From Squalus acanthias (taxonomy: Eukaryota), in assembly GCA_030390025.1 (NCBI GenBank), contig CM059431.1:101372001-101436000 (forward strand): a DNA stretch of 64,000 nt. The letters are read 5' to 3'. How positions within the stretch are numbered: the stretch's first letter is position 1; each line of letters starts with the position of its first letter. This document shows, piece after piece, positions 10,635 through 45,123 of the stretch. The notes under the pieces were generated by a model that saw only the letters and a list, made by a program, of their open reading frames with translations, was not told the DNA's origin and did not search any database. The translations under genes and the position numbers were made by a program.

Positions 10635-11524
10635 GGGGAAGAAATTCAGTATCGCTCCATTTGGGGCGTAATTATCGGCCGGGCGCAAAGATTAGCACCT
10701 GGCGCTAATTATCGCCACCGACTGCAAACTTGACTTTTATCGCCCCTGGAGGTGATTGGAGCGCTAAATCAGGCGCTTCACACCTGTCTTAAGGCGCAAG
10801 GCCGAGGAGAGAGGCACTACCTCAGAGCGCTGGCGAAGCTCATGTGATGTCAGTCAGCAATGGAACACACACACAATGGCACGGGCCAGTTCTTAAAGGG
10901 GATGGTTGATCTTGTTTTCCATCCACATCCTGCTCATTGCAGCCTTGAATCTCGGCCTGGAGAGACCTGCACATCAAATCTGCTGGAAAGAACAATGGAG
11001 AGTACCAGGCAAAGAGCTCAGAGTGCAGCCCCCACAGTCTCTTCTAAATCGATACAAGGAATGGCAAATCAAAATGAACCTGCAAAGTGCTGCTCAGTAC
11101 CCAAAACTCCTTCACACAGCGTTGAATCTCTCCAGAAGTCTCTCTCTCTCTCTCTCAGAATGCGTGGTTCAAAAATGGCACCAACAATAAAGGCAGGAAG
11201 CGGTCGCCTTTAAATAGCGCTCCCCCAGTCCCTTCATGACTACAAAACGCTCCCCTCAACCTGTCGTTGCTAGCGTCAGGCGGTAAGGCAGGCAGCGCCA
11301 CTCAATATCCGCTCCGGGACGATACCGGGGCGTTGCGCACTCGACTGACGTCACGATCTGCCGGCGCAGGAGATCGTGGCGGTAGTGTTTAGCGCCGCCG
11401 CAAAATGTCTCGTTAATTTCGCGAGCGGCGCAAACATCGCCGCGCCAGGCGCTAGATGCTTTGCGCCCCATTAGCACCCTCTTAAGGCACCAACGGGAGG
11501 CGCAACCAACTGAATTTTTCCCCC
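10635..11524. mobile_element. Non-autonomous Harbinger (internal-deletion type), 890 bp
   Basis: TIRs GGGGAAGAAATTCAG / CTGAATTTTTCCCCC; TSD TAT; ends homologous to 26293-30442; inserted in the 3' tail of the upstream CR1. Confidence 0.9.
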
Positions 11525-14472: not shown

Positions 14473-14950
14473 AGTGACGTTCGGAAACACTTCTACACGC
14501 AAAGGGTGGTAGAAGTTTGGAACTCTCTTCCGCAAACAGCGGTTGATGCTAGATCAATTGTTAATTTTAATTCTGAGATTGATAAATGATTTCTGTTAAC
14601 CAAAGGTATTGAGGGATATGGGAAAAAGGCGGGTATATGGTGCTCGGTTACAGATCAGCCATAATCTCACTGAATGGCGGAAGAGACTCGAGCTGTTCAA
14701 TGGCCTCCTCCTGTTGCTATGAAAACCACTTCCCACTCACTGCCAGACTGAGTAACTACCCTTACCCCGACTCTCTTTGAACTGCAACACCTCTGAGGTA
14801 TAACATGTGCGAGACAAAACTTTTCATTACATACATATTTCATCTCAGTGAATGAATTTTACTGTTTATGGACACCACACCAGCAATCCATGTATTTCAC
14901 CCTCTCTGATTCTGCTCAGTCTCCCATTCTCAGTGCCCCCCTCTTACAGT

Positions 14951-15626
14951 AGGGGAATAGATGTCGACTCACAGCACCATGCTGAGAGGGGGAATAGCTG
15001 TCGACTCACAGCACCATGCTGAGAGGGGAATAGCTGTCGACTCACAGCACCATGCTGAGAGGGGGAATAGCTGTCGACTCACAGCACCATGCTGTGAGGG
15101 GAATAGCTGTCGACTCACAGCACCATGCTGAGAGGGGGAATAGCTGTCGACTCACAGCACCATGCTGAGAGGGGGAATAGCTGTCGACTCATAGCACCAT
15201 GCTGAGAGGGGAATAGCTGTCGACTCATAGCACCATGCTGAGAGGGGAATAGCTGTCGACTCATAGCACCATGCTGAGAGGGGAATAGCTGTCGACTCAC
15301 AGCACCATGCTGAGAGGGGAATAGCTGTCGACTCACAGCACCATGCTGAGAGGGGGAATAGCTGTCGACTCATAGCACCATGCTGAGAGGGGAATAGCTG
15401 TCGACTCACAGCACCATGCTGAGAGGGGGAATAGCTGTCGACTCACAGCACCATGCTGAGAGGGGAATAGCTGTCGACTCATAGCACCATGCTGAGAGGG
15501 GAATAGCTGTCGACTCACAGCACCATGCTGTGAGGGGAATAGCTGTCGACTCATAGCACCATGCTGTGAGGGGGAATAGCTGTCGACTCACAGCACCGTG
15601 CTGTGAGGGGGAATAGCTGTCGACTC
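14951..15626. repeat. Minisatellite, ~18 copies of a 36/37-bp unit
   Basis: Unit ggggaatagctgtcgactcacagcaccatgctgaga, head-to-tail, with variants only in G-run length, cac/cat and gag/gtg. Confidence 0.95.
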
Positions 15627-16511
15627 TACCCAGTTTCTTCCATGGCTACTTTCTATAGCCCCAGTGGGCCTCACGCTCCCCCTTCAAACAGCTCCTTAAC
15701 TCTACTGCCACTCACAACTGCCAACCCCAAGACTACACCCTCAATCCGGCAAAACCCCAGCCTAGCACTGCCCATTACCAAATCCCATCCCCAGTGCTAC
15801 CGAACCCGGTGAATCCCAGACTGTTTGCTCCCCCCATTGCATCCAGATCCTATCCCACTCCCAAGTACTCAGTAAGAGGCTAAAAGGGTTCAATTATGAG
15901 GGCAGGTTGCATAGAATAGGCTTGTATTCCCTTGAATGTAGAAGATTAAGGGTGATCTAATTGAGATGTTTAAGATGATTAAAAGATTTAATCGGGTAAA
16001 TAGAGAGAAACCATTTCCTCTGGTGGGGGAGAGCAGGGGGCAGAACCTTAAAATTAGAGCTAGGCCGTTCAGGGGTGATGTCAGGAAGCACTTCTTCACA
16101 CAAAGGGAAATTTGGTTCAAATCACTCCATGGTCTTGCCACTCCCTATCTCTGTAACTTCCTCAAGCCTTAAAGCCCTCTGAGAACACTGCGCTCCTCCA
16201 ATTCTGGTCTCTTGAACATCCCCAAATTTCATCACTCCACCATTGGTGGCTGTACCTTCAGCTGCCTGGGCCCCAAGCTCTGGAATTCCCTACCTAAACC
16301 TCTCCACCTCTCCTCCTTTAAGCTGTTCCTTAAAACCTGCATCTTTCACCAAGCTTTTGGTCATCAGTCCTGAGATCTCCTTATATGGCTCTGTGTCAAA
16401 TTCTGTTTGATAACGCTCCTGTGAAGTACCTTGCGAGATTTTACTATGTTAAAGGCACTATATAAATGCAAGTTGTTGTTGTCGTTGACTCATCATGAGC
16501 AATGTCACAGG

Positions 16512-21103: not shown

Positions 21104-21999
21104 GGGGTAAAAATTTGGTCGCGCCCCATTTGGGGCGCAAATATCGTCTGGACGCAAATATTAGCGCCTGGCGCTAATTATCGGCACTGACTGGAAACTT
21201 CACTTTTACCGCCCCGGGAGGTGAGTGGAGCGCTAAATCAGGCGCTGCACACCTGTCTTAAGGCGCAAAGGCCAAGGAGTGAGGCGCTAACTCAGAGCGC
21301 TGGCGAAGCTCATGTAATGTCAGTCAGCAATGGAACACACACACAATGGCACGGGCCAGTTCTTAAAGGGGATGGTTAATCTTGCTTTCCATCCACATCC
21401 TGTTCATTGCAGCCTTGAATCTCGGCCTGGAGAGACTTGCATATCAAATGTGCTGGAAAGAACAGTGGAGAGTACCAGGCAAAGAGCTCAGAGTGCAGCT
21501 CCCACAGTCTCTGCTAAATCGATACAAGGAATGGCAAATCAAAATGAACCTGCAAAGTGCTGCTCACTACCCAAAACTCCTTCACACAACGTTGAATCTC
21601 TCCAGAAGTCTCTCCCCCTCTCTCTCTCAATGCGTAGTTCAAAAATGCCACCAACAATAAAAGACAGGAAGAGGCCCCCTTTAAATAGCGCCCCCCCCCC
21701 CAGCCCCACAGCGATTGATAGCGTTCCAGTCTTCTGGTCGTTGGATGCGCCAGGCGGTAAGGCAGGGGGCGCCACTCAATTTCAGCTCTGGGGCGCCACA
21801 AGGGCGTTGCACCATGGAATGACGTCACAAACTGCGCGCGCAGGTGGTCGCAGCGGTAAAGTTTAGCGCCGCCGCACAATCTCTAGTTAAGTTCCCGAGC
21901 GGCGCAAACATCGCTGCGCCCGGGCGTTAGCGGCTTTGCGCCCCATTAGCGCCCTCTTAAGGCGCTAACGGGAGGCGCAACCAACTGAATTTTTACCCC
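21104..21999. mobile_element. Non-autonomous Harbinger (internal-deletion type), 896 bp
   Basis: TIRs GGGGTAAAAATT / AATTTTTACCCC; TSD AAG; terminal ~200-300 bp very similar to 26293-30442; interior very similar to 10635-11524. Confidence 0.92.
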
Positions 22000-23885: not shown

Positions 23886-26651
23886 TTACCTCCAGACTTG
23901 ACTATTCCAATGCTCTCCTGGCCAGCCTTCCAGCTTCCACCCACCGTAAACTTCAGTTCATCCAAAGCACTGCCGCCCGTATCCTAACTCGCACCAAGTC
24001 CTTTTCACCCATCACCCCCTGTGCTCGCTGACCTACCTTGGCTCCCAGTCCGGCAACACCTCGATTTCAAAATTCTCATCCTTGTTTTCAAATCTCTCCA
24101 TATCTCTGTAAACTCCTCCAGCCCTACAATCCTCTGAGATCTCTGCGCTCCTCCAATTCTGGCCTCTTGTGCTTCCCCGATTTCCTTCGCCCCACTATTG
24201 GCGGCCGTGCCTTCAGTTGCCTGGGCCCTAAGCGTTGGAATTTCTTCCCTAAACCTCTCTTTCCTCCATTAAGACGCCCTTTAAAATCAACCACCTGTCA
24301 CACTATCTCCTTATGTGGCTTGGTGTCAAATTTTCTCTGATAACTCTCCTGTGAAACGCCTTGGGACATTTTACTACGTTAAAGGCACTATATAAATGCC
24401 TAGCTTTAAGAAAGAGCAGATACAACTGTGGGAAATATACACCAGTTAGCAAGACAAATAGCTGTAAAACTATTTGAGAGTATTATGAAGCACACAATTC
24501 AAGATCCTTGGTCGTAAATGAATGCGATAAATAAAAGCCAGCATGGATTAATGAATGGCAGTTCATGCCTTCAATATGTATCTGACGTTGTCGACCATGG
24601 TTCAGTGGGTCGCACTCTCGCCTCTGAGTCTGAAGGTTGTGGGATCGAGTCCCATTCCAGAGACTTGAGCACAAAATCCAGGCCGACACTCCTAGAGCAG
24701 TGCTGAAGGAGTGCTGCACTGTCAGAGGTGCCGTCTTTCGGATGAGACGTTAAACAGAGGGCTCGTCTACACTCTCAGGTGGGCGTAAAAGATCGCATGC
24801 CACTATATTGAAGAGCAGGGAGTTCTCTCCAGTATCCTGGGCCAATATTTATCCTTCAACCATTAATCAGGAAAAACAGATGATCTGGTCATTATCACGT
24901 TGGACTTTACTGATTATCTTTGCTTTTTGTTAAATCATCATGTTTTGGGGGAAAACAAAATCATTAAATTTAAACGGTTGCAGCTCATAAAATTATATAA
25001 TCTAAACAATAACATTTATATAGTGCCTTTAACGTAGTAAAATCATCCCAAGAACTAAAGGGGAAATGAGGACAATTTTTTTCACACAGAGGGTTGTTAT
25101 GATCTGGAACGCACTACTTGAAAGGGTGGTGGAATCAGATTCCATAGGAACTTTCAAAAGTCAACTGGACATGTACTTGAAGAGGATGAATTTGCAGGGT
25201 TATGGGGAAAGAGCAGGGGGGAGTGGGACTAAATTGGAGAGTTCTTTCAAAGAGCCGGCACAGGCACGACGGGCCGAATGGCCTCCTTCTGGTCTATAAG
25301 ATTCAATGATTCTAAGAAGGAGGCCATCGTGTCTCTTTGAAAGAGCTCTCCAATTAGTGCCACTGTCCTACCCTTTCCCCATCGCCATGCAGTTTTATCC
25401 ACTTCAAGTATTCATCCAATTCCCTTTTGAAAGTCACTATTGAATCTGCTTCCACCACCCTTTCAGTGCTCTTCGTGTTTCATAAATGTCTTTAATTTCT
25501 TTATATTTCTCTCGTCATGCCTCCTATTGTCTCATGCAAATATCACTTTAACCTTCTCCTGTTTTCCACTTCAGCGCTTTGCAGGTCATTCTATTTCTTT
25601 GCGCGCACGTGTGCGTGTGTCTGTGTGTCTCCTCCTCTCCTTTCTTTGGTCTAGTCCTTTTTAAATTCAAGTAGCGATGCTGGTCTGCATGGGGAACAAG
25701 CTTAGTAATGTCATATTAACCTACACAACTGAAATAAGCACCTAAAACACAACTTTTATCATCAAAAGTGAGAATTATCAGAGATGGACTAAGTATTTCC
25801 TATTTGTAATATGCAGTGTTCCTATCAAGCAATCCAAGATCAGTTGCAGCAAGACTCAGATGCAGAGCAAAAGACCCATTTTCTCTGCTCAAACAAAACC
25901 GCAACCTCAGAATAGCATCCCCAACTGAATCAGTGAGATATTTCCCACACTAGTTACATTTGGGGCTACCTTGATTGCGAATCAGTCTTGAATTATTTAT
26001 CTGTGGTATACTCTAGATAAGTACCAGCAGGTAATACCTTCAGTGTCTTATCACCCTTACAGCTCACCGTAGAAGAGACTTTCATTATTTCAGTCTGGGC
26101 TAAATTCAAACCAGGTAGCAGAGGTTAAGTGTGCTAACTCATTAGGGTTGCAAAGGGGTGGAAAGTTTCCGGTAAATTTCCAGAAATTTTCCACGGGAAG
26201 TTTAGCTTGGGAATTTTGCCCAAAAAAGCACATTCTAGCATAATATTGTTTTTTTTTTTCCACAGGTCCTCTTAAAATTACTAACAGAGATGGGGGTAGA
26301 AATTAGGTCGCGCCCCATTTGGGGCGCAAATATCGTCCGGACGCAAATATTAGCGCCTGGCGCTAATTATTGGCACTGACAGGAAACTTCACTTTTACCG
26401 CCCCGGGAGGTGAGTGGAGCGTTAAAGCAGGCGCTGCACACCTGTCTTAAGGCGCAAAGGCCAAGGAGTGAGGCGCTAACTCAGCGCGCGAGCGCAGCGC
26501 AGCTGCTGCCAGTTAGCGAGGGAACACAGACACACTGGCGCCGGACACTTCTTAAAGCGGGGGGGGGCCACTTGCTCCCCAGCCACACCCTGCTCATTGC
26601 AGCCTTGAATCTCAGCCTGGAGAGACCTGTGAATCCATTTTGCTGCCAAGC

Positions 26652-28529
26652 ATGGAGAGGGTGAGAGAACGCGCTCATCGCTTCACCGAGCGGGCCTTGG
26701 ATGCTCTGGTTGACGCAGTGGAGCGCAGACGATGTATGCTGTTCCCTGAGAGTGGCAGGAGGCCTTTGCCACGCGAGTTCAGAAGAGTGTGGAGGGAGGT
26801 GGCTCAGAGCGTCTCCTCCAGGAGCATGGTGCCCAGGACCCATACTCAATGCCGCAAAAAGTTCAACGACCTCACTCGGGTCGTCAGGGTGAGTGGCTTT
26901 TTCTCAATACCTCTCCATCCCTCCATCTCAACCTCACTCTATGGCCAGAGGGTCTTAAAACCCCAATGCACAACACTCATCCAACACCTATGGCCCTTTC
27001 ATCAAACACACACACACATTCCACACTTTGCATACAGTAAGGGCTATTCACCTATGGGAGGCACATCAGGCAAGACCATGGCTGTATACAGTAAGGGCTA
27101 TTCATCAATGGGAGGCACATCAGGCAAGACCATGGCTGCATACAGTAAGGGCTATTCACCTATGGGAGGCACATCAGGCAAGACCATGGCTGTATATTTA
27201 CTCAGATGCTGTCCTTTTTCTTGCAGGCTAAGCTGGCTCATAATAGGAGACAGCAGCAACGGACAGGTGGAGGGCGGCTTCAGCTGCAACCCCTCAGCGA
27301 TCTGGAGGAGCGCGTCCACAGGATTGTGGCAAGCCGGGTGATCGGTCCCGTCGCCACTGGAGACGCCGACCCCGTTCTGGACAGCAATGGTAAGGTCATC
27401 ACCTTTTTGTCCTCTGTCCTTCCACTTGTCCCTCACAACACCAGCCTTTGACACTTTCAATCCAACTTGCTAACTCGCTGCACTTATTCCTCCCTTACTG
27501 CCACCCTGTCCTCACGCTAAAGCCACTCTTGTACCTCCCTGCTTTCAGATGGTGATTCACCAGCTGAGGAGACGGGCCCTGAAGCTGCCACTGGGAGTGA
27601 TGCTGCAGCTGAGGAGGAAGAGGAAGCCAGAGCATCAGTGCCACCCTCTCCCGAGGAAGCCCATGCCCACACTGGGAACACGCCTTCCCCGGAGGGGAGC
27701 AGGGGGGAAGGGGCTGATGATGGTGAAGCTCCAGGACCCAGCGGGCTGCAGCAACGCCATGGGGGGGGGTAGGGAAGAACGGGGGCCTTCTCCCCAGAGG
27801 GAGAGTATGCCAGACACTCCTACTGCAATGGACGCAGAGGAGGAGCGGCTGATTGCAGAAATGAACAGCCAGGCGGTGGGCATGCACACTGAGCTCATGG
27901 GTGCAGTGGGAAGGGTGCCCGAATGCATTGAGTCACTGGCAAGGAATGTGGAGCACTTCGCTGTAGCACAGGCGGATGCCACACTAACGCTTAGTGCTGC
28001 AATTCAGTCACTGGCTGCCGTGATCCCACCTCTGACTGCTCTCATACAGACTCAGATGGAGGCCACGCGAGCACAGACTGCTGCCAACCTCGATGGTTCG
28101 TGCACATGTCCCCGGGGCTGTCACCGCGCCGCAGCAGGCCAGCAATCTGTTCTCCGGCAGATTGCTCCGGATGCTGAAGTGCTGCCCCGTGGGAGTGCCA
28201 GTGTGTCGGGCGAGCAGGGAGTTGCTGGCCTCTCTCACGATGACAGCATTCCTGCTGCCAACACTGTCACTTCTCCACTGCACTTGCCACCGCCTGTAGG
28301 ACAGACTGCTGCTGCCCATGCAGAGTTGGTGCAGTCTGCAGCCGGGCCCTCCAGGCCCAGAAGTGGTCGAGGCCGTCCTTCAGGGGCATCTGCAGTGTCA
28401 GGGTCTGACGAGCAGCAGCCTTCCACCAGCCTTGCTGCAGCCACTGAGGTCCCATTACGGAGGAGCAGTAGGGTTAGAAGGGGGGAAGTGCGCAAGGGAA
28501 GGAGATCACCCTCGAAGGGCAAAAAGTAG
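26652..28529 (+). CDS. Harbinger Myb/SANT(MADF/trihelix)-like DNA-binding protein; exons 26652-26888, 27227-27389, 27549-28529; one apparent +1 frameshift in the G9 run 27761-27769
   Basis: Exon 1 encodes RAHRFTERALDALVDAVERRRCMLF...WREVAQSVSSRSMVPRTHTQCRKKFNDL. GT-AG sites AGG|gtgagt, ttgcag|GCT, G|gtaagg, tttcag|AT have compatible phases. Exon 2 encodes AKLAHNRRQQQRTGGG. Acidic low-complexity region, then an Ala/Gln-rich helical segment and a basic C-terminus. Confidence 0.8.
27030..27195 (+). repeat. Three tandem copies of a 54-bp unit inside intron 1 of the Harbinger Myb-like gene
   Basis: Unit gcatacagtaagggctattcacctatgggaggcacatcaggcaagaccatggct repeated three times. Confidence 0.9.
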
Positions 28530-28823
28530 GAGGTGTGACAAAATGCTGGTCATTCTTTTATTAAAGGCCGAGGTTCGTGGTCCAACTTTTGTTTAGTGTT
28601 TTGGACATTATCTCCAGGTTGTGAGAACCAGTTATGTTATTGACTGTTTTTTTGTGTTTATTTCTATGAGTTTGTCATGAGGAATTGACACACACAGAGT
28701 TTGTAAAATAAATAAGTTTCTGTATTCAAAATATACATGGCTGGTGGTTGGAATTATTGGTGCCTTGGCCGGCTTAGGGGTTGCGTGCTGGGTTGATTAG
28801 TGTTTGTAGCAATGGCAGGGGCC

Positions 28824-29975
28824 CTAGAAGCGGCTTGCTATTAGTCGTTGACGGACGGCCCTTGCAGTTTGACCATTGTGGGCCGCCCTCCTGCCTTGGT
28901 GCTGCTGATGATCATCGTCCTCGTCCTCTTCCTCCTCCTCCTCTGGTGGTGCTACAAGGCCTGGTGGCATTGGCTGGGTCCTGAGGATTGCCATGTTGTG
29001 CAACATGCAGCACACGACTACGAAGTTCGAAACTTGCTCAGGCGAGTACTGCAGGGCTCCTCCGGAATGGTCCAGACAGCGGAACCGTTGTTTCAGCACG
29101 CCGATTGTGCGCTCAATAATGTTCCTGGTTGCTTGATGGCTTTCATTGTACCGCAGCTCAGCAGGGGTGTTTGGCGTACGGAGCGGTGTCATCAGCCAGG
29201 TGCTCAATGCGTACCCCTTGTCCCCGAGAAGCCAACCAACTGGCTGATGCGGTGCCTCGAAAACTTCTGCCACAGTAGTCTGGCGCAGGATGAAAGCATC
29301 GTGGCAGCTGCCCGGATAGAGGGCATTGACAGCGAGTATCACCTGTCTGTGGTCACAGACCAACTGCACATTCAAGGAATGGAACCCCTTTCTGTTCCTG
29401 AATTCCTCTGCATTCTCTCGCGGAGCACGCAAAGCCACATGCGTGCAGTCAATGGCGCCCTGCACCATGGGGAAGCCCGCTACCCTCGCAAAGCCCAGAG
29501 CACGGTCACGCTGCTTGTCTGGGGTCATAGGGAAAGAGATGAAGTCTCGTCTCCTTCTGAAGAGGGCATTGGTGACCTGCCGGATGCAGCGATGCACCGC
29601 AAACTGGGAGATATTGGCGAGGTCCCCAACAGCAGCTTGGAATGAGCCAGTGGCGTAGAAGTTCAAAGCCACTGTGACCTTCACTGCCACCGACAGAGAC
29701 GTCCTGGACCTCAGCTGAGGCTGCAGATCTGGCTGCAGCAGGTGGCAGAGCTCAGTGACCACCTCCTTGCTGAATCGCAGCCTTCGCAAACACAGCTCCT
29801 CGGACATATGGATGTAGGAGAGCTGTTCACGATATACCCTGGGAGGGTAAGCTCTCCTGTACATGCGCCTGATGGCCCTCCTCCGTCTGGCCATCATTGC
29901 CACTCTCTCTCTGCGTCTCGGTATCCTCCGATTCACCTGGAGCAGGACGACGCCCCCAATCAGTGCAGCCCCCAT
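28824..29975 (-). CDS. Harbinger DDE transposase (HARBI1-like), 383 aa from ATG 29975, intact ORF
   Basis: Motifs [94 protein letters not shown] box upstream on the minus strand (~30148-30155). Confidence 0.93.
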   Translation of the reverse strand: MGAALIGGVVLLQVNRRIPRRRERVAMMARRRRAIRRMYRRAYPPRVYREQLSYIHMSEELCLRRLRFSKEVVTELCHLLQPDLQPQLRSRTSLSVAVKVTVALNFYATGSFQAAVGDLANISQFAVHRCIRQVTNALFRRRRDFISFPMTPDKQRDRALGFARVAGFPMVQGAIDCTHVALRAPRENAEEFRNRKGFHSLNVQLVCDHRQVILAVNALYPGSCHDAFILRQTTVAEVFEAPHQPVGWLLGDKGYALSTWLMTPLRTPNTPAELRYNESHQATRNIIERTIGVLKQRFRCLDHSGGALQYSPEQVSNFVVVCCMLHNMAILRTQPMPPGLVAPPEEEEEEDEDDDHQQHQGRRAAHNGQTARAVRQRLIASRF

Positions 29976-30738
29976 ATTCTCTTTGCCAGAAAAGTAATGA
30001 GGTACAGCAACTGAAGTAGCAACAAAGTTAGGATGAATAGGCAAAACTACCTCACAAAGCGTTGAGTCAATGTAGAAGTCTCTCTCTCTCTCTCAGAACG
30101 AGTGGTGCATAAATGTCGACCACAGAAAAAGACAGGAAGAGGCCCCCTTTAAATAGCGCCCCCCCCAGCCCCACACCGATTGATAGCGTTCCAGTCTTCC
30201 GGTCGTTGGAAGCGCCACTCAATTTCCGCTCCGGGGCGCCCCAAGGGCGTTGCACCATGGAATGACGTCATAATCTGCGCGCGCAGGTGGTCGCAGCGGT
30301 AAGTTTTAGCGCCGCCGCACAATCTCAAGTTAAGTTCTTGAGCGGCGCAAACATCGCTGCGCCCGGGCGTTAACGGCTTAACGTCCCTTTAGCGCCCTCT
30401 TAAGGCGCTAACGGGAGGCGCAACCAAGTGAATTTTTACCCCATGGAATCTTAATTATTAAGGAATTTCTTAATCAATATATGTTTATCTTCTTACTTGG
30501 CTTGTTTTAATAATTACAAGTTTTGTGTGTGACTATGAACAAATGTGTCCTGATTGGTTGGATGAGTGGATGAGCGATTAGCTCCCTCTATTGGTGATGT
30601 AGCGTCGTGCGTGCACAGGTCATGCTTCCATCACATGGAGCATCAGGAAAAATTTACTCACCCTGGCCTGTTGCAATCGTGCTGATCGACCGCAGTTCGA
30701 CACAGAGACGAATGCCCTTTATTTCTCTGCATAGAACA

Positions 30739-33409
30739 ATGCCACGTTTACCGTCGGATGTGTGTAAGCATTTTACCCCAGGCATTAAAGATGGAAAGAC
30801 TGTGTACATGTGCAAACACTATACAAAGCCATATGTAAAGAATGCCACAAAGATGCAGCAGCATTTATCCAAATGCAACAACTTCACTCAAAGCTCACAG
30901 CAGTCAGCCCAGAGTTTCTCTGCTTCCATTCAACACGACTCGCCTTCAAGCAGCCGTCTAACCTCAAAAGTACCATCGTTCGCAGCAGATTACCCATCTT
31001 TCAGGAGAACAGCAACCACGACACCACACAACCCTGCCACGGCAACCTTTGCAAGACATGCCAGATCATGGACACAGATACCATCATCACACGTGAGGAC
31101 ACTACCCACCAGGTACATGGTACATACTCATGTGACTCGGCCAACGTTGTCTACCTGATACGTTGCAGTAAAGGATGCCCCGGAGCATGGTACATCGGCG
31201 AGACCATGCAGACACTGAGACAACGTATGAACGGACACCGCGCAACAATCGCCAGGCAGGAGGGTTGCCTCCCAGTCGGGGAACACTTCAGCAGTCAGGG
31301 GCATTCAACCTCGGATCTGCGGGTTAGCGTTCTCCAAGGCGGCCTTCGGGATACACGACAGCGCAAAATCATAGAGCAGAAACTGATAGCCAAGTTCCGC
31401 ACTCATGAGGATGGCCTCAATCGCGATATCGGGTTCATGTCACGGTACAGAACGTGACTTGACATCATGGCCGGTCTTTCCAGCCTTTTTTAAAAAAAAA
31501 ACTAACACAAGAACCAAACTCAATTGCAGAGGATATGCAGCCAGCAGGTGTTTTGACACGTTGGACCCCCTGGGGCACATCTCATTGTCTTGGCTGTGCT
31601 CTTAGTGTGTCTTTGATGTAGGGAAAGATTTGAATACATTTTTTCTGTGTTTATATTGTGAATTCTGGGAGATTCTCTCACAGCTACTCTACCTGAGGAA
31701 GGGGCGACAGCTCCAAAAGCTTGTAATTTTAAATAAATCTGTTGGACTAGAACCTGGTGTTGTGCGACTTCTCATTTTTGTCCATTCAAGAAGATGATGG
31801 TTCACATTCAGCATCAGGCTCCTTATCATCAGCAACTCCTGGCCCACTTGGAAGGTTCTTTGATACAATGGATAACCATAGCCAGAAGAATGCAGATGAG
31901 TGCCTTGCTCGAGCTGTATATGCGACAGGCTCACCCCTCATGCTCACAGCCAATGTGTACTGGAAGAGATTTTTCAATGTTATTCGCCCTGCATACTGTC
32001 CTCCCACCAGACATGCTTTGTCTACCTATTTGCTGGAGGCTGAGTATAACAGAGTCCAAGGAAAGCTCAGAGAAACAATAGAGATGGCAGACTGTGTTGC
32101 AGTTATCTCAGATGGGTGGTCAAATGTACGAGGGGAGGGCATCATAAACTACATCGTCTCCACTCCTCTCCCAGTGTTCTTCAAGAGCACAGACACGAAG
32201 GACAACAGACACACAGGCACATACATTGCTGATGAGCTGAAAGCGGTCATCAACGATCTTGGATCACAAAAGGTCTTTGCAGTAGTTACTGACAATGCTG
32301 CGAATATGAAGGCTGCTTGGGCTCAAGTGGAGGAGGCCTACCCTCATATTACGTCTATTGGGTGCGCAGCTCATGGGCTCAACCTGCTCCTCAAGGACAT
32401 CATGGGTTTGAGAACCATGGAAACACTGTACAAGAGAGCCAAGCAAGTTGTTCAGTATGTCAGGGGAAAACAGGTAGTTGCAGCAACCTACAACTCCAAG
32501 CAAACAACAAAGAACAAGAACACCACACTGAAGCTGCCCAGCAACACTAGATGGGGTGGCGTTGTCATAATGTACAACAGCCTTCTGGAGGGTAAGGAGT
32601 CGCTGCAAGAAATGGCAATATCCCAGTCTGGGGATATGGAAACCACCATCAAGAAAATACTGCTGGATGATGTGTTTTGGGAGAGAGTGGTTAGCAGCCT
32701 TAAACTACTCTCACCAGTAGCATCTGCAATTGCTCAGATTGAAGGAGAGGACGCTGTCTTGTCAGATGTTCTCAGGCTTTTTGCTGATTTAAAAGAACAA
32801 ATCAGCATTGCCCTACCCACATCCCTGCTGCTCAAAGCAGAGGAGAAGGCAATTGTTCAATTCATACAGATGCGTCAAGAATTTTGTGTCAAGCCGATTC
32901 ATGCTGCAGCATACATGCTGGACCCAAAGCATGTTGGGAGACCAATACTTTCTGGAGAACAGATCAACAGCGCTTACAGTGTGATTTCTACCCTCTCACG
33001 CCACCTCAATCTGGACATGGGCAAAGTTCTGGGAAGTCTGGCAAAGTTCTCTACCAAGCAAGGTCTTTGGAATGGGGACGGGATATGGGAATCATGCAAG
33101 CATATCAGTGCACATACCTGGTGGAAGGGACTTTGTGCATCTGAGGCCCTGTCACCCATTGCATCAGTGATACTCCAAATCCCACCTTCATCAGCGGCCT
33201 CTGAACGAAACTGGTCACTTTTTGGGAATACGCATACAAAGGTGCGGAACAGGTTGACTAACAAGAGAGTGGAGAAACTGGTGGCTATCCGGGCGAACCT
33301 ACAACTTATTGAGCCAGATACAGAAGTGTCCACCACACAGCTAGACAGTGACACAGAGGAGGAAATGGACACGTCAAAGCCAGAGTCAGAGAATCAGGAG
33401 GAGCAATGA
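30739..33409 (+). pseudogene. hAT transposase (BED finger + DDE core + C-terminal dimerisation domain), split by the Penelope insertion; join 30739..30933 + 31790..33409 = 604 aa
   Basis: N-terminus MPRLPSDVCKHF...MCKHY...HLSKC (BED-like). Core motifs SDGWSN, VTDNAANM, CAAHGLNL, TRW, LDP, WW, PPSSAASERNWS, RNRL. In-frame after removing the insert and one TSD copy (…ASIQ|EDDG…). Confidence 0.9.
30934..31780 (+). mobile_element. 5'-truncated Penelope-like element (GIY-YIG endonuclease + 3' pseudo-LTR)
   Basis: ORF with CDSANVVYLIRC...WYIGETMQTLRQRMNGH...HF...GLN; 9-bp TSD tccattcaa (30925-33, 31781-89); degenerate hammerhead motif at ~31690-31725. Confidence 0.9.
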
Positions 33410-36400
33410 TGAGTAGAAGACTCAGAAGACTCATGAGTAGAAGACTCAAAGGGACAAAATAAGAACAAATTACAGGCTAAATAAGCTGACGCTCTTTTTA
33501 TTTTATTTTAGATGGGTCTTTTTTGTGGGGGTTCAATAAAGTTCAAAATTATAACCTAAATAAAGTTTTGAAAGCCTGTTTTTATTTGTATGGAACAGTA
33601 TGTCTATTTTGATGACAAAGATAATATAAGGGTCAGAGACAAAAACCATCAGTGTGTAAAAAAACTCAAAATTCCCATAAATTCCCCAAATTCCCATAAA
33701 TTCCCGAAAATTCCCATGGAAAGTTTCCTCTTTTAAAAATTCCCGGAATTTTGCAACCCTGTAACTCACTGTGCCAAACATTTAATCATTTTTCAACCTT
33801 CACATCCGTTCATTCATACAGTTCAGCTGATTTTTGGTCTTCTATAGGAGTCAGGTATGAAACTGAACAATTTAACTGATACTTGAACACATACTTGTGT
33901 CCAACTTTGGTACATTTTTATATTCATTCTCGGGGTGTGGGCGTCGCTGGCAAGGCCAGCATTTATTGCCCAAACCTAATTGCCCTCGAGAAGGCACATA
34001 CATTGCTGATGAGCTGAAAGCGGTCATCAACGATCTTGGATCACAAAAGGTCTTTGCAGTAGTTACTGACAATGCTGCGAATATGAAGGCTGCTTGGGCT
34101 CAAGTGGAGGAGGCCTACCCTCATATTACGTCTATTGGGTGCGCAGCTCATGGGCTCAACCTGCTCCTCAAGGACATCATGGGTTTGAGAAAGTGGTGGT
34201 GAGCCGCCTTCTTGAATCGCTGCAGTCTGTGTGGTGAAGGTACTCCCACAGTGCTGTCAGGGAGAGAGTTCCAGGGTTTTGACCCAGCGACGATGAAGGA
34301 ACGGCGATATATTTCCAAGTCAGGATGGTGTGCGACTTGGAGGTGGTGGTATTCCCATGCACCTGCTGCCCTTGTCCTTCTAGGTGGTAGAGGTCGCGGG
34401 TTTGGGAGGTGCTGCCGAAGAAGCCTTGGCGAGTTGCTGCAGTGCATCTTGTAGATGGTGCACACTGCAGCCACGGTACGCCGGTGGTGGAGACAGTGAA
34501 TATTTAAGGTGGTGGATGGGGTGCCAATCAAGCGGGCTGCTGTGTCTTGGATGGTGTTGAGCTTCTTGAGTGTTGTTGGAGCGGCACTCATCCAGGCAAG
34601 TGGAGAGTATTCCATCACACTCCTGACTTGTGCCTTGTAGATGGTGGAAAGGCTTTAGGGAGTCAGGAGGTGAGACACTCGCTGCAGAATACCCAGCCTC
34701 TGACCTGCTCTTGTTGCCACAGTATTTATGTGACTGGTCCAGTTAAGTTTCTGGTCAATGGTGACCCTCAGGATGTTGATGGTGGGGGATTCGGCAATGG
34801 TCAAGGGGGGCGGGAGTTGGTTGGACTCACTAACTCTATTAATTTTGTTCTCTACTCTACCGACACATCCTAGATAAGCGGTTGAAAAGCAGGATATCTA
34901 TGTGGATGGCGCAAAATGTGTGGCAGAGGGTGATATTTTTCAGTAAGATCTGGAATTACTCAGCAAGTAGGCTAAGAATTGGTATTGATGGGCAGATAAA
35001 AAGCTCACAGAGATGATAAAATGAACAGTCATGCATTGCTCATGCTGGAGGAGAGAAGTAAAGATTTGGGAGTACTTCTTCAAAGATGTCTCTGCTGTGG
35101 AAAATGATGCTTAATAAGGCTAACAAAACACACAGATGCAGTGCCCGAAGCATTGAGTACAAGTCCGAGAATGTCATATTAGCTCTCACCAATAAAGCTG
35201 AGATTATGGGGAAGAGAGCATTCAGGGATTTTTTAAATAATGAAGGGAGTAAATAAAGTAGATGTCATTAAAATTTGGGAATTCAGTCAAGATTGTAACA
35301 CAAGAACGTACTTTCAAAATACGAAGTCAATTCCTGAGCAAAAGGCTCACCCATCTTGACTGTGAGATCGTAGAATGAGCTATCAAGGAGTGGTCAAGGC
35401 GAATAGCACAGATGCATTTAAGGGCAAGCTAGATAAACACATGAGGGAGAAAAGAATAGAAGGCTATGCTGATGGGGTGAGATGAAGAGGAGTGGGAGGA
35501 GGCTGGTGTGAAGCATAAACACCGGCACCGACCAGTTGGGCCGAATGGTCTGTTTCTGTGGTGTAAATTCTGTGCAACTTAACCGACAGACTTATATACT
35601 CTGCACTGCACCACTTTAAAAGGGAACTGGACTTGAATCACGTTGCAGGAGGATGTGGAAAGAGTACTTGATGAAATTTAGGACAAGGTAATAATAGATG
35701 TCTTTGTGGTTTGAAGAGCTTCCTGCAGCACTTTCTCTCACTCAACAGGCTCTTGCATTTGAACAACAACTTTGGCCTTCTTTTACAAGAAAGTAGCTAT
35801 CTAATATCGTCTCCCTCCGACCTTTGCCTCCATTGGCACGGGTAAGTCGTCTCCTTCATTTCCCCATTATGAATTATGCTACTCTCAGGATGGAATTTAC
35901 TTCAAAAAAAGGTCCCAAGACTATTACAGAACTTTGAAAATCAACACAACATATACATATGCTGCAGTGTGTGCTATTTACAAGATGCACTGCAGCAACT
36001 CGCCAAAGCTCCTTCGGCAGCACCTCCCAAACCCGCGGCCTCTACCACCTAGAAGGACAAGGGCAGCAGGCGCATGGGAACACCACCAACTCCAAGTTCC
36101 CCTCCCAGTCACACACACCATCCTGACTTAGAAATATATTGGCCGTTCCTTCATCGTCGCTGGGTCAAAATCCTGGAACTCCCTCCCTAACAGCGCTGTG
36201 GGAGCACCATCACCACACGGACTGCAGCGGTTCAAGAAGGCGGCTCACCACCACCTTCTCGAAGGCAGTTAGGGATGGGCAATAAATGCTGGCCTTGCCA
36301 GCAACGCCCACATCCCATGAATGAATAAATTAAAAAAATACTTGCTTAATATTTACATATTTGCTTAAATTTGACATTATTGAGGCTCTGCAACTAATTT

Positions 36401-42700: not shown

Positions 42701-44021
42701 ATCCAGTTATTCAAATTAAGCAATTTAAATAAAACAGCACAGGAGGCTTAATTAACAGATCATTCAAACTACACAACAATTAAGAGTAGACTGTACACAC
42801 TATCTTCAGGAGCGTTGACACCCTCCTACTCAAACGCATATATCTCTCAGATTACTGAAGGATTTCTCTAGGGACATACTCGATCCAAAATTTCCACTGC
42901 AAAGTTCCTGACCAAATCCATGTTATACCTTGATTTAGAAAATCCTGGCTTTAGCTGAAAAACAGCACAGTTCGTCTTTAAAAGTTCAATTGATTGGTTT
43001 AGTCAAAATTATTCACCAACAGAACTGAAAAGGAGAGAGAAAAAAGAGAAAAGAGAGATGAGATGAGATGAAGGGAGGAAGAAAAGGAAAGACAGAAAGG
43101 CTTGCAATTATACAGCGCCTTTCACGACCTCAGGACATCCCAAAGCGCTTTGCAGCCAATGAAGTCTCTGGAGTGGGACTTGAATACTTGCATTGATACT
43201 ATAAGTGGCATATTTCTGAGCTTAGGTAATTGCTAAAGTTTAAGCTAAGTAAGCTCTACCCTATTTCTGTCCTTGCTATACCTGCTCTGGGAATATGCTT
43301 GACGTTGACAATAGACAGTGGTTCAAAAAAGATAAAAACTTACATTTAGATAGCGGCTTCCATGACCACCAGACGTCTCAAGGCGCTTTACAGCCAATGA
43401 AGTACTTTTGAAGTGCAGTCACTGTTGTAATGTAGGAAACGCGGCAGCCAATATGCACACAGCAAGCTCTCAGAAACAGCAATGTGATGATGACCACATA
43501 ACCTGTTTTTGTTATGTTGATTGAGGGATAAATATTGGCCCAGGACACCAGGGATAACTCCCCTGCTCTTCTTCGAAATAGTGGCCGTGGGATCTTTTAC
43601 GTCCACCTGAGAGAGCAGACGGGCCCTCGGTTTAATGTCTCATCTGAAAGACGGCACCTCCGACAGTGCAGCACTGCCTCAGCACTGCACTGGAGCGTCA
43701 GATTATATTTTTGTGCTCAAGTCTCTGGAGTGGGACTTGAACCCACAACCTTCTGACTCGAGGCGAGTGTGCTGCCCACTGAGCCACGGCTGACATCTTA
43801 AAGTTAAACACCTCCATTATCATTCACAAAAATATGCAAACACTAAGTCATAGATATTATTAGAAAAATTAACCCTATATCCTTAACTGCAAAAACAATT
43901 ACAATTGCATAATTGAGAGTCAAGCATGGGCAGAACAAGGGATTGTTGACTAGTACAATATGATGGTCATATGGGAAAGCAAACAAGCTGCAGAGCTCAG
44001 TGTTTCCCAAGGTGAGAAGGT

Positions 44022-44520
44022 CAGTGCTGAGGGAGCGCTGCAATGTCGGAGGGGCAGTACTGAGGGAGCGCTGCAATGTCGGCGGGGCAGTACTGAGGGA
44101 GCGCTGCAATGTCGGAGGGGCAGTACTGAGGGAGCGCTGCAATGTCGGAGGGGCAGTACTGAGGGAGCGCTGCACTGTCGGAGGGGCAGTACTGAGGGAG
44201 CGCTGCACTGTCGGAGGGGCTGTACTGAGGGAGCGCTGCACTGTCGGAAGGGCAGTACTGAGGGAGCGCTGCAATGTCAGCGGGGCAGTACTGAGGGAGC
44301 GCTGTGCTGTCAGAGGGGCAGTACTGATGGAGCACGGCACTGTCGGAGGGGCAGTACTGAGGGAGCGCTGCACTGTCGGAGGGGCAGGACTGAGGGAGCG
44401 CTGCAATGTCGACGGGGCAGTACTGAGGGAGCGCTGCACTGTCGGAGGGGCAGTATTGAGGGAGCGCTGCACTGTCGGAGGGGCAGTATTGAGGGAGCGC
44501 CGCACTGTCAGAGGGGCCGT
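44022..44520. repeat. Minisatellite, ~15 copies of a 33-bp unit derived from the Deu-SINE core
   Basis: Unit gggagcgctgcactgtcggaggggcagtactga; runs directly into SINE sequence gccgtctttcggatgagac. Confidence 0.92.
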
Positions 44521-44536
44521 CTTTCGGATGAGACAT

Positions 44537-45123
44537 TGTAAGCAAAGTGGTTTCGCATTTTTCCTTTTAGAATAAAGCTTTCTATATAAATATTGCAGTT
44601 TAATTAAGCAACCAAATGATTGGAACCTTGTGTAGTCAAGCATGTCCTTGGAGCATTCGAAGTAAAGGAGACATTCTGGTTATCTTATGGTATTAGGGAG
44701 GCTCGACAGACTGTGTGTGTTGGCTCGGATAAGGTAATAGTACAGATGGTTGCTAGGCGAAAGATAAAGAATATTATGAATGGGAGGCCTCCCAGGGCAC
44801 AAGGATCATTAGGACGAAGGGTGTGTTTTAATGTATATAAGCCTGGACTTGAAGCACAGATGTGAAAACGTTCTCGGAGCAAACCTGGACATGCTCAAGT
44901 GCTAGCAAGGCCATTCGAGATCGATCATCTCGAAACCTTGTAGATATTAACCAGTTGTATCTTTCTATAACTGACAATGCTATAAGTATAACTGTTGCAT
45001 TTTAACTTCTTTATTTCTTGAATTGTAGCTTCTTTTGTAGCTGTAATAAACACAGATACTTTGGAACAAGGGCCCCTCTAGTCTCAGAGTATCACAGACC
45101 AAATCTAATATCACTCACTTACA
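44537..45123 (+). mobile_element. Solo LTR (587 bp) inserted in a Deu-SINE
   Basis: TGTAAG...CTTACA termini; TATATAA at 44834; AATAAA at 45045; 5-bp flanks gacat/gatgt, both derivable from the SINE's GACGT. Confidence 0.75.

Follow-up and report, generated by a model that had tools for sequence, protein, structure and literature searches.

The window analysed here, 64,000 nucleotides of shark DNA, contains a two-gene Harbinger element seated inside an hAT transposon, together with two shorter relatives of the same element. The features are given below in order of position.

10635-11524 (+): shorter non-autonomous relative (890 bp) flanked by duplicated TAT; its two ends resemble those of the full element at 84% and 77.5%
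21104-21999 (+): shorter non-autonomous relative (896 bp) flanked by duplicated AAG; its two ends resemble those of the full element at 95% and 93.5%
26143-33761 (+): host hAT transposon holding the Harbinger; ends (T/C)AGGGTTGCAAA; 8-bp duplication agreeing at 7/8 positions
26290-26292 (+): left target-site duplication, ATG
26293-30442: two-gene Harbinger element, 4150 bp
26293-26305 (+): left terminal inverted repeat, 13 bp, starting GGGG; 12/13 bases pair with the right end
26323-26479 (no strand): left subterminal cluster of five GGCGC(T/A)AA motifs, candidate Myb-binding sites
26652-26888 (+): first exon of the Myb gene; its 79 codons include a Myb/SANT domain (Myb_DNA-bind_5, PF13873, E 1.6e-9; 78 homologues)
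26889-27226 (+): Myb gene intron 1, 338 bp, GT..AG, phase 0; homologue P0008 crosses the junction
27032-27196: 54-bp array, 3.1 copies, in Myb intron 1
27227-27389 (+): Myb gene exon 2 (23 domain matches in the set of 78 homologues)
27390-27548 (+): Myb gene intron 2, 159 bp, GT..AG, phase 1
27549-28529 (+): Myb gene exon 3, with acidic linker, helical region and basic C-terminus; the G run shifts its frame
27761-27772 (+): run of nine G (27761-27769), then premature TAG (27770-27772); related copies are four letters shorter
28557-28712: candidate polyA signals (AATAAA) of the convergent 3' ends, minus strand at 28557 and 28657, plus strand at 28707
28824-29975 (-): transposase, 383 aa, stop-free; D176 at 29448-29450, D252 at 29220-29222, E288 at 29112-29114
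30148-30155 (-): putative TATA-like box upstream of the transposase
30306-30411 (no strand): right subterminal cluster of four GGCGC(T/A)AA motifs
30430-30442 (-): right terminal inverted repeat
30443-30445 (+): right target-site duplication, ATG
31751-33406: hAT open reading frame, 552 aa, DUF659 and hAT dimerisation domains, inside the host hAT transposon

The element at 26293-30442 is a real, structurally complete cut-and-paste transposon of the PIF/Harbinger superfamily. Inverted ends and an ATG duplication were rejected as sole proof of this, since about six such pairs are expected by chance when all position pairs up to 10 kb apart in the window are considered. What establishes the ends as real is their recurrence in the two shorter relatives, each with a duplication of its own; a 3-bp duplication thus accompanies all three insertions in the window. 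The boundaries are likewise marked by a sharp jump at both ends in the depth of contigs, which were assembled from coded public runs (X1, X8, X15 and others) and aligned to the window, and by the interruption of the hAT transposon, into which the Harbinger was inserted as the later arrival. Both terminal repeats and the exact ATG duplication described in an earlier note on this DNA are thus genuine. The intact duplication is no sign of youth, however, because the diverged copy at 10635-11524 keeps one too. That copy had escaped the earlier note. At 13 bp the terminal repeat lies below the usual 25-50 bp of PIF/Harbinger but inside the 5-1042 bp range given in PMC4482050, and the element carries four hallmarks of the superfamily in its broad sense (PMC9179366), namely a DDE transposase, a Myb/SANT open reading frame, terminal inverted repeats and a 3-bp target-site duplication. 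Transposition in this superfamily takes both proteins, the Myb-like one binding the element ends as well as the transposase (PMC9179366).

The transposase matches the Pfam family DDE_Tnp_4 (E 3e-39), its D/D/E triad is whole, and it deviates nowhere from the residues kept by at least 80% of its homologues, in full agreement with the uninterrupted 383-aa protein first described. In its structure model (pLDDT 83) strands carry the two Asp and a helix carries the Glu, which is the arrangement reported for the superfamily. No relative of solved structure was found by sequence search, and Foldseek with the model returned nothing at E 0.001 or better, the top six rows being DDE transposases or integrases. 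Shark or ray names are borne by 110 of the 120 homologues listed, all of the best 63 included. Homologues at 56-66% identity point to a shark as the source. The closest database relatives listed come from Pristiophorus japonicus and Heptranchias perlo; they are automatic models, annotated 'Putative nuclease HARBI1' or Myb-related and not described as transposons, and for the transposase they reach 66% identity, with no annotated protein above that value. In a tree (13-row set), the transposase falls among sawshark proteins with support 97/84, within a clade of sharks and rays.

The Myb gene starts with the ATG at 26652 and runs convergently with the minus-strand transposase. Its homologues (n=78), obtained by an unindexed protein search starting from exon 1, are predicted gene models rather than cDNA, and those from sharks support the exon model, in which GT..AG introns have phases 0 and 1; this bears out the convergent three-exon gene with canonical, phase-compatible splicing proposed earlier. 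One relative (P0124) aligns collinearly from exon 1 through to the C-terminus, and on either side of the G run P0124 and P0125 both match exon 3 in the frames of the model. The post-run frame is matched by 7/78 homologues and the other two frames by 0/78. GC3 (0.59/0.55/0.67) fails to single out the post-run frame. A word-index search with the post-run frame gave no match among 7935 candidates, an Atlas search gave leads below 0.9 only, and P0121 showed no significant match to the Myb tail. Taken as protein comparisons, the homologue matches support the exon model and the predicted reading frame beyond the run. Contigs of run X15, guessed to be RNA, read unspliced across the first donor, and no joint at a modelled junction appears among the 15 of 42 joints listed. 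A raw RNA run under another organism label (X21) yielded no reads aligned to the element and is uninformative; neither it nor the X15 contigs and the listed joints speak for or against expression.

As assembled, the Myb product ends after 207 aa at the TAG that follows the nine G, exactly as first reported. The contigs of related copies show a four-letter gap at this run (10 in X1, one in X15 and one in X8, the last at depth 24/26.2), and no one-letter gap was seen among the variant places listed (40/195). The spacing in three homologues is also that of the shorter run, and judged by these alignments this copy holds four extra G relative to the family. Because the gap accounts for 11% of the summed contig depth in X1, and for 21% in X15, other copies may have longer runs as well; we do not accept summed depth as a measure of copy number. 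The earlier note had proposed a single extra G, eight G reading through to 28529 as a protein of ~459 aa; the frame stands, but the contigs differ by four letters and their removal gives 458 aa, not 459. Four extra G make a simple homopolymer miscall a less fitting explanation and, by truncating the partner, leave the copy without self-sufficiency as assembled, since an autonomous element has two intact open reading frames in one copy.

The flanks of the three family insertions agree with those of the zebrafish Harbinger3_DR at 25/36 positions (P 5e-7; 1e-6 against AT-matched sites), and this palindromic bias resembles the target of that element, AAACAC..GTCTTT. Harbinger3_DR was reconstructed by Sinzelle et al. 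2008 and its activity shown experimentally, according to PMC3016246 and PMC9392472. Likened on structure and flanks rather than on protein sequence, the two systems share a DDE transposase, a Myb-like gene and a 3-bp duplication, but the central triplet is CWG in Harbinger3_DR, whereas the triplets duplicated here (ATG, AAG and TAT) include no CWG in either orientation (0/3). Nor do they include TWA (0/3), the duplication of PIF/Harbinger in the narrow sense, as defined in PMC4482050. As characterised in that same paper, NuwaI of the PHIS superfamily is similar in ends that begin with GGG, a terminal repeat of 13 bp (range 12-61), a Myb/SANT second open reading frame, an animal host and size (mean 4.46 kb against ~4.2 kb for the shark element). 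Its defining CWG duplication is lacking in the shark family (0/3), and with three sites only we do not file the element under NuwaI.

Words of the family are present under eight organism labels at shares of 0.48-0.88; these labels are coded and may stand for close relatives or for samples with host DNA. The contigs of X1 that align to the element number 29,973, of which 13,500 are less than 95% alike and 6,228 at least 99% alike. This copy differs from the family majority contigs by about 1.1-1.2%, from X8 pieces (label C) at 28/2335 bases (98.8% alike, introns included) and from deep X15 pieces at 16/1488 bases, so low divergence had been rightly expected. The G run is not the only lesion, as had been thought, for at least nine of 35 listed substitutions in the element are near-private; none of these falls on a strongly conserved transposase residue. 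Amino-acid changes make up 16 of the 23 coding differences listed, which is a roughly neutral pattern. The mutation rate measured in the epaulette shark is very low, and at that rate 0.4% corresponds to 2.8-29 million generations, provided that the changes postdate insertion. The family is young by sequence, which on a slow shark clock may mean millions of generations. Hence of the claim of a recently active family the ~1% divergence stands, but activity does not follow, given the eight labels, the large share of X1 contigs below 95% and the slow rate. The further premise that intact vertebrate Harbingers are uncommon does not hold everywhere, with 269 in one sea krait according to PMC8437027.

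We consider it highly probable (about 85%) that the locus holds a PIF/Harbinger copy of full length, from an abundant two-gene family in a cartilaginous fish, and that this copy lies inside an older hAT transposon and is lightly decayed with its helper frameshifted. A whole-looking transposase beside a frameshifted helper makes this an ordinary, lightly decayed copy. By analogy with Harbinger3_DR (PMC3016246, PMC9392472), a promoter in each end would drive convergent transcripts, and the Myb/SANT protein would bind the ends, probably at the clustered GGCGC(T/A)AA motifs, which were picked post hoc from sequence already inspected. The same protein would bind the transposase and carry it into the nucleus, and the DDE transposase would excise the element and reinsert it into AT-rich DNA of loosely palindromic sequence, the central 3 bp being duplicated. 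The anatomy, the abundance of the family, the four-letter difference, the ~1% divergence, the nesting order and the flank bias are observed; in this scheme we infer expression, splicing, import, excision and motif binding, and likewise any date. The four extra G in exon 3 would yield a 207-aa partner without the helical region and basic tail, and the copy may still supply transposase or be mobilised in trans.

One possible explanation for the near identity across labels, compatible with the reading just given, is a recent horizontal spread between species. The many labels that carry the words, the similarity of the X8 introns and the lack of annotated proteins above 66% identity among the matches listed would all fit, as would the sea krait precedent (PMC8437027), but the position of the transposase among sawshark proteins within the shark-and-ray clade, the coded labels and the slow shark clock make such a spread improbable.

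We regard it as quite improbable that the nine G are an assembly error in a fully autonomous copy of a currently active family. Homopolymer miscalls are mostly single-letter, and the family contigs differ by four letters here, even though the lesion does sit in a homopolymer. Intact ends, introns and transposase, the thousands of X1 contigs at least 99% alike and an insertion later than an hAT copy whose 3' open reading frame stays open for 552 aa would suit this explanation, whereas the near-private substitutions, the 12% of sampled words still missing from the best run and the generations implied by 0.4% (if the changes postdate insertion) speak against it. Domestication of the transposase/Myb pair for a host function is hardly credible, for although a domesticated look is common among the close homologues and both genes remain largely intact, the ends and duplication are kept, the seat is inside another transposon, the family is very abundant, the helper is frameshifted and the coding differences are roughly neutral, quite unlike the single copy without ends or duplication of HARBI1/NAIF1-type domestication.

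The shark element, taken as a lightly decayed family copy, is a further member of a known superfamily. The PHIS superfamily has been reported absent from sharks (PMC4482050), Harbinger was not found in the elephant shark, with a recommendation that other cartilaginous fishes be checked (PMC9179366), and Harbinger is among the repeat classes of two later shark genome papers (PMC8455134, PMC12498223). Our search of the literature outside Repbase, Dfam and supplements found no published full-length two-gene shark Harbinger family. The copy provides such a description, with a Harbinger3_DR-like target bias, and its significance is modest. Harbinger-Snek of sea kraits (PMC8437027) is likewise a vertebrate Harbinger of high copy number that occurs both at full length and as short non-autonomous elements, but it has a horizontal arrival, counted intact copies and RNA support, whereas the nearest relatives of the shark element are from sharks.

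A bolder proposal, which we hold to be rather doubtful, is that the family is still moving by means of intact sister copies in which the run is shorter. In that case the family would be a native vertebrate Harbinger that needs no reconstruction and targets palindromic flanks with a free triplet, and its clade may have seeded several catalytically dead, conserved shark and ray genes. Should such intact sisters be active, they would provide a sequence-selective vertebrate transposon, and if the whole proposal is true, wild and domesticated forms would occur together in a lineage once said to be Harbinger-free.

The D/D/E triad is kept in 53 of the 110 homologues that span all three columns, and conserved groups without the Glu include P0011, P0024, P0039, P0007 and relatives. 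Sharks and rays thus have relatives that are conserved but catalytically dead; these look domesticated and offer a stronger lead, as a side observation.

The element at 26293-30442 is a real, ordinary, lightly decayed copy from an abundant shark Harbinger family. It, its parts and the related structures in the window are:

26143-33761, host hAT transposon; its ends match, with a 7/8 duplication and an ORF with DUF659 and hAT-dimerisation matches (552 aa)
26293-30442, Harbinger element; inverted ends alike at 12 of 13 bases, ATG on each side
21104-21999, shorter element with common ends and its own duplication, AAG
10635-11524, shorter element with common ends and its own duplication, TAT; unnamed in the earlier note
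29975-28824, minus strand, transposase ORF of 383 aa; DDE_Tnp_4 match, E 3e-39
27032-27196, array of 3.1 units of 54 bp in Myb intron 1
28557-28712, candidate polyadenylation signals of both convergent genes, overlapping by 50-150 bases

Inverted ends with a duplication of this kind are expected about six times by chance in the window, and the boundaries therefore rest on other evidence. The inverted ends and ATG duplication described in the earlier note are real, being backed by the two shorter relatives, by a step in contig depth (summed over contigs from sequencing run X1, it is 240,000-1,290,000 within the element but less than 15,000 in the outer bins of the flanks) and by the hAT transposon, which is split by the Harbinger element and by a second insertion. 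A hAT contig from run X15 fits the window from exactly 30443 on, with variants of equal depth on the left flank of the Harbinger element, and would represent a sister hAT copy without the Harbinger interruption. The hAT has a BED-finger-like start near 30708; inside its gene lies a fragment with a GIY-YIG-like motif (about 30870-31790) that gave no match in Pfam and is presumably Penelope-like.

The uninterrupted transposase with D/D/E motifs was borne out, with D176, D252 and E288 all present. In an AlphaFold model (pLDDT 83) the two Asp residues fall on strands and the Glu falls within a helix; PDB searches returned no significant relative. The best 120 of 431 homologues comprise 110 with shark or ray names, six from other vertebrates and four unnamed, the best 63 being sharks or rays throughout; identity to these 120 does not exceed 66%. 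A cartilaginous fish is thus the probable source of the window. The protein departs from the prevailing residue at seven positions conserved in at least 65% of homologues, at each of which some homologues share its residue, and at none conserved in at least 80%. A tree built from 59 rows, after 62 of the 121 had been excluded for shortness, groups it within the sawshark proteins. The leader (minus strand, 30110-29975) contains a short upstream ORF, whose ATG at 30110 is changed in many other copies, as well as an intron-like set of signals.

The proposed three-exon Myb-like gene, with canonical splice sites and compatible phases, also held up, on the evidence of gene models rather than cDNAs (from Pristiophorus, Heptranchias and rays, among the six looked up). 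P0008 crosses junction 1 in register. In a set of 78 Myb-like homologues, exon 2 is covered by 23 domain matches, and the part of exon 3 upstream of the run of nine G at 27761-27769 is matched by two proteins. Beyond the run, the frame favoured earlier is matched by seven of the 78 (best E 2e-19, small search set) and the other two frames by none. P0008, a sawshark gene model, has a start like Myb exons 1 and 2 fused to a transposase; either both genes lie on the same strand there or the fusion is an annotation artefact. At 27107, within the intron 1 array, X1 depth drops to just 577, and the number of 54-bp units may thus be lower in many copies. The overlapping 3' ends of the convergent genes could yield double-stranded RNA.

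As assembled, the Myb product ends at 207 aa, keeping the Myb domain and losing a helical region and a basic tail. The single extra G suspected as the cause does not agree with related contigs, which lack four letters at the run in all three runs covering the site: ten contigs in X1 (depth 127,879 of 1,148,286), one in X15 (220.5 of 1029.8) and one in X8 (24 of 26.2). No one-letter gap exceeded the listing threshold in these contigs. Since the homologues P0122, P0124 and P0125 likewise have eight residues over this stretch, the spacing of a shorter run, and not nine, the family frame, judged from sequence, is open (458 aa) and the present copy, as assembled, four letters longer, although in X1 and X15 the contigs with the gap account for less than half of the depth.

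The motif GGCGC(T/A)AA, picked after the fact, occurs 26 times in the window, 24 of them within the three family members; in the full element nine copies lie in the ends and none in the 3.6-kb interior. These are likely Myb sites. By analogy with the zebrafish Harbinger3_DR, in the scheme found in the accessible parts of PMC9179366 and PMC9392472, the Myb protein would bind the ends and the transposase and import the latter, and the DDE enzyme would then cut and paste the element; the present copy could supply transposase and ends at most. The flanks of the three insertions agree at 25 of 36 positions with the Harbinger3_DR flanks available from PMC3016246 (P 5e-7, or 1e-6 when AT-matched, taking the best of two orientations in data and null).

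The element is young in sequence terms, as had been supposed: eight long X8 pieces listed differ from it at 28 of 2335 bases (1.2%) and five deep X15 pieces at 16 of 1488 (1.1%; 2.7% for all seven). Among 29,973 X1 contigs, 6,228 are at least 99% alike, 10,245 are 95-99%, 11,357 are 90-95% and 2,143 lower. Of 35 listed substitutions within the element (155 further places lie beyond the listing), 16 are opposed by at least 75% of X1 depth and nine by at least 95%. Interior depth is 0.33-0.54 of that of the ends, so long copies make up a large part of the family. Twenty runs, together carrying eight organism labels and including one without a label, each contain 0.48-0.88 of the element's words. 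With the rate of 7e-10 per generation given for the epaulette shark in the accessible part of PMC10587355, 0.4% corresponds to 5.7 million generations (interval 2.8-29 million) and 1.2% to 17 million. Both figures are rough ceilings, since the runs may come from other species and subfamily structure accounts for some of the divergence. X8 contigs show no differences in 495 bases over the introns (26850-27058, 27305-27590), whereas their other 1840 bases contain 28 (P about 0.001); X1 and X15 do differ at intron position 27003; differences also bunch at 26713-26741, 27690-27721 and 29920-29936. This pattern is consistent with a mosaic copy. Both shorter elements are MITEs; the one at 21104-21999 is mosaic, its ends 93.5-95% like the full element and its core 94% like the one at 10635-11524, to which its ends are only 80-87% alike, which suggests exchange between subfamilies.

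The element shows every testable feature of the broad PIF/Harbinger superfamily. Its family is filed under neither NuwaI nor the narrow PIF group, which according to the accessible part of PMC4482050 require CWG and TWA duplications, respectively, since none of the three duplicated triplets is of either form; despite this mismatch it would, in our view, work like Harbinger3_DR. The same part of PMC4482050 calls PHIS elements absent in sharks, and that of PMC9179366 reports none in elephant shark, while Harbinger appears among the repeats of whale shark and grey reef shark in the portions available of PMC8455134 and PMC12498223. A full-length shark Harbinger family was not found described in the literature as far as accessible, and Repbase, Dfam and supplements may already contain such families. 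Intact vertebrate copies, earlier called uncommon, can reach hundreds according to the available text of PMC8437027.

Only 53 of the 110 transposase homologues spanning all three catalytic columns keep D/D/E. Four pairs (P0004/P0005, P0011/P0012, P0024/P0026 and P0039/P0040) are 83-89% identical, in the first two and the last between distant species, and a group of six (P0007, P0015, P0016, P0021, P0023 and P0027) is 69-83% identical; the Glu is absent from all of these except P0024. Clusters at 90% of transposase-derived homologues unite whale, bamboo, epaulette and white sharks, across shark orders, and one six-member clade splits rays from sharks in the way expected from the species phylogeny. 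Conservation across rays is also seen in P0128, a Myb-derived cluster. The Glu-less conserved groups look, from their sequences, like domesticated shark and ray genes beyond HARBI1, and are candidates as such, along with P0024/P0026 and the Myb-derived cluster. Elsewhere in the window lie tandem arrays of 33-bp units (43909-44619) and of 36/37-bp units (14916-15683).
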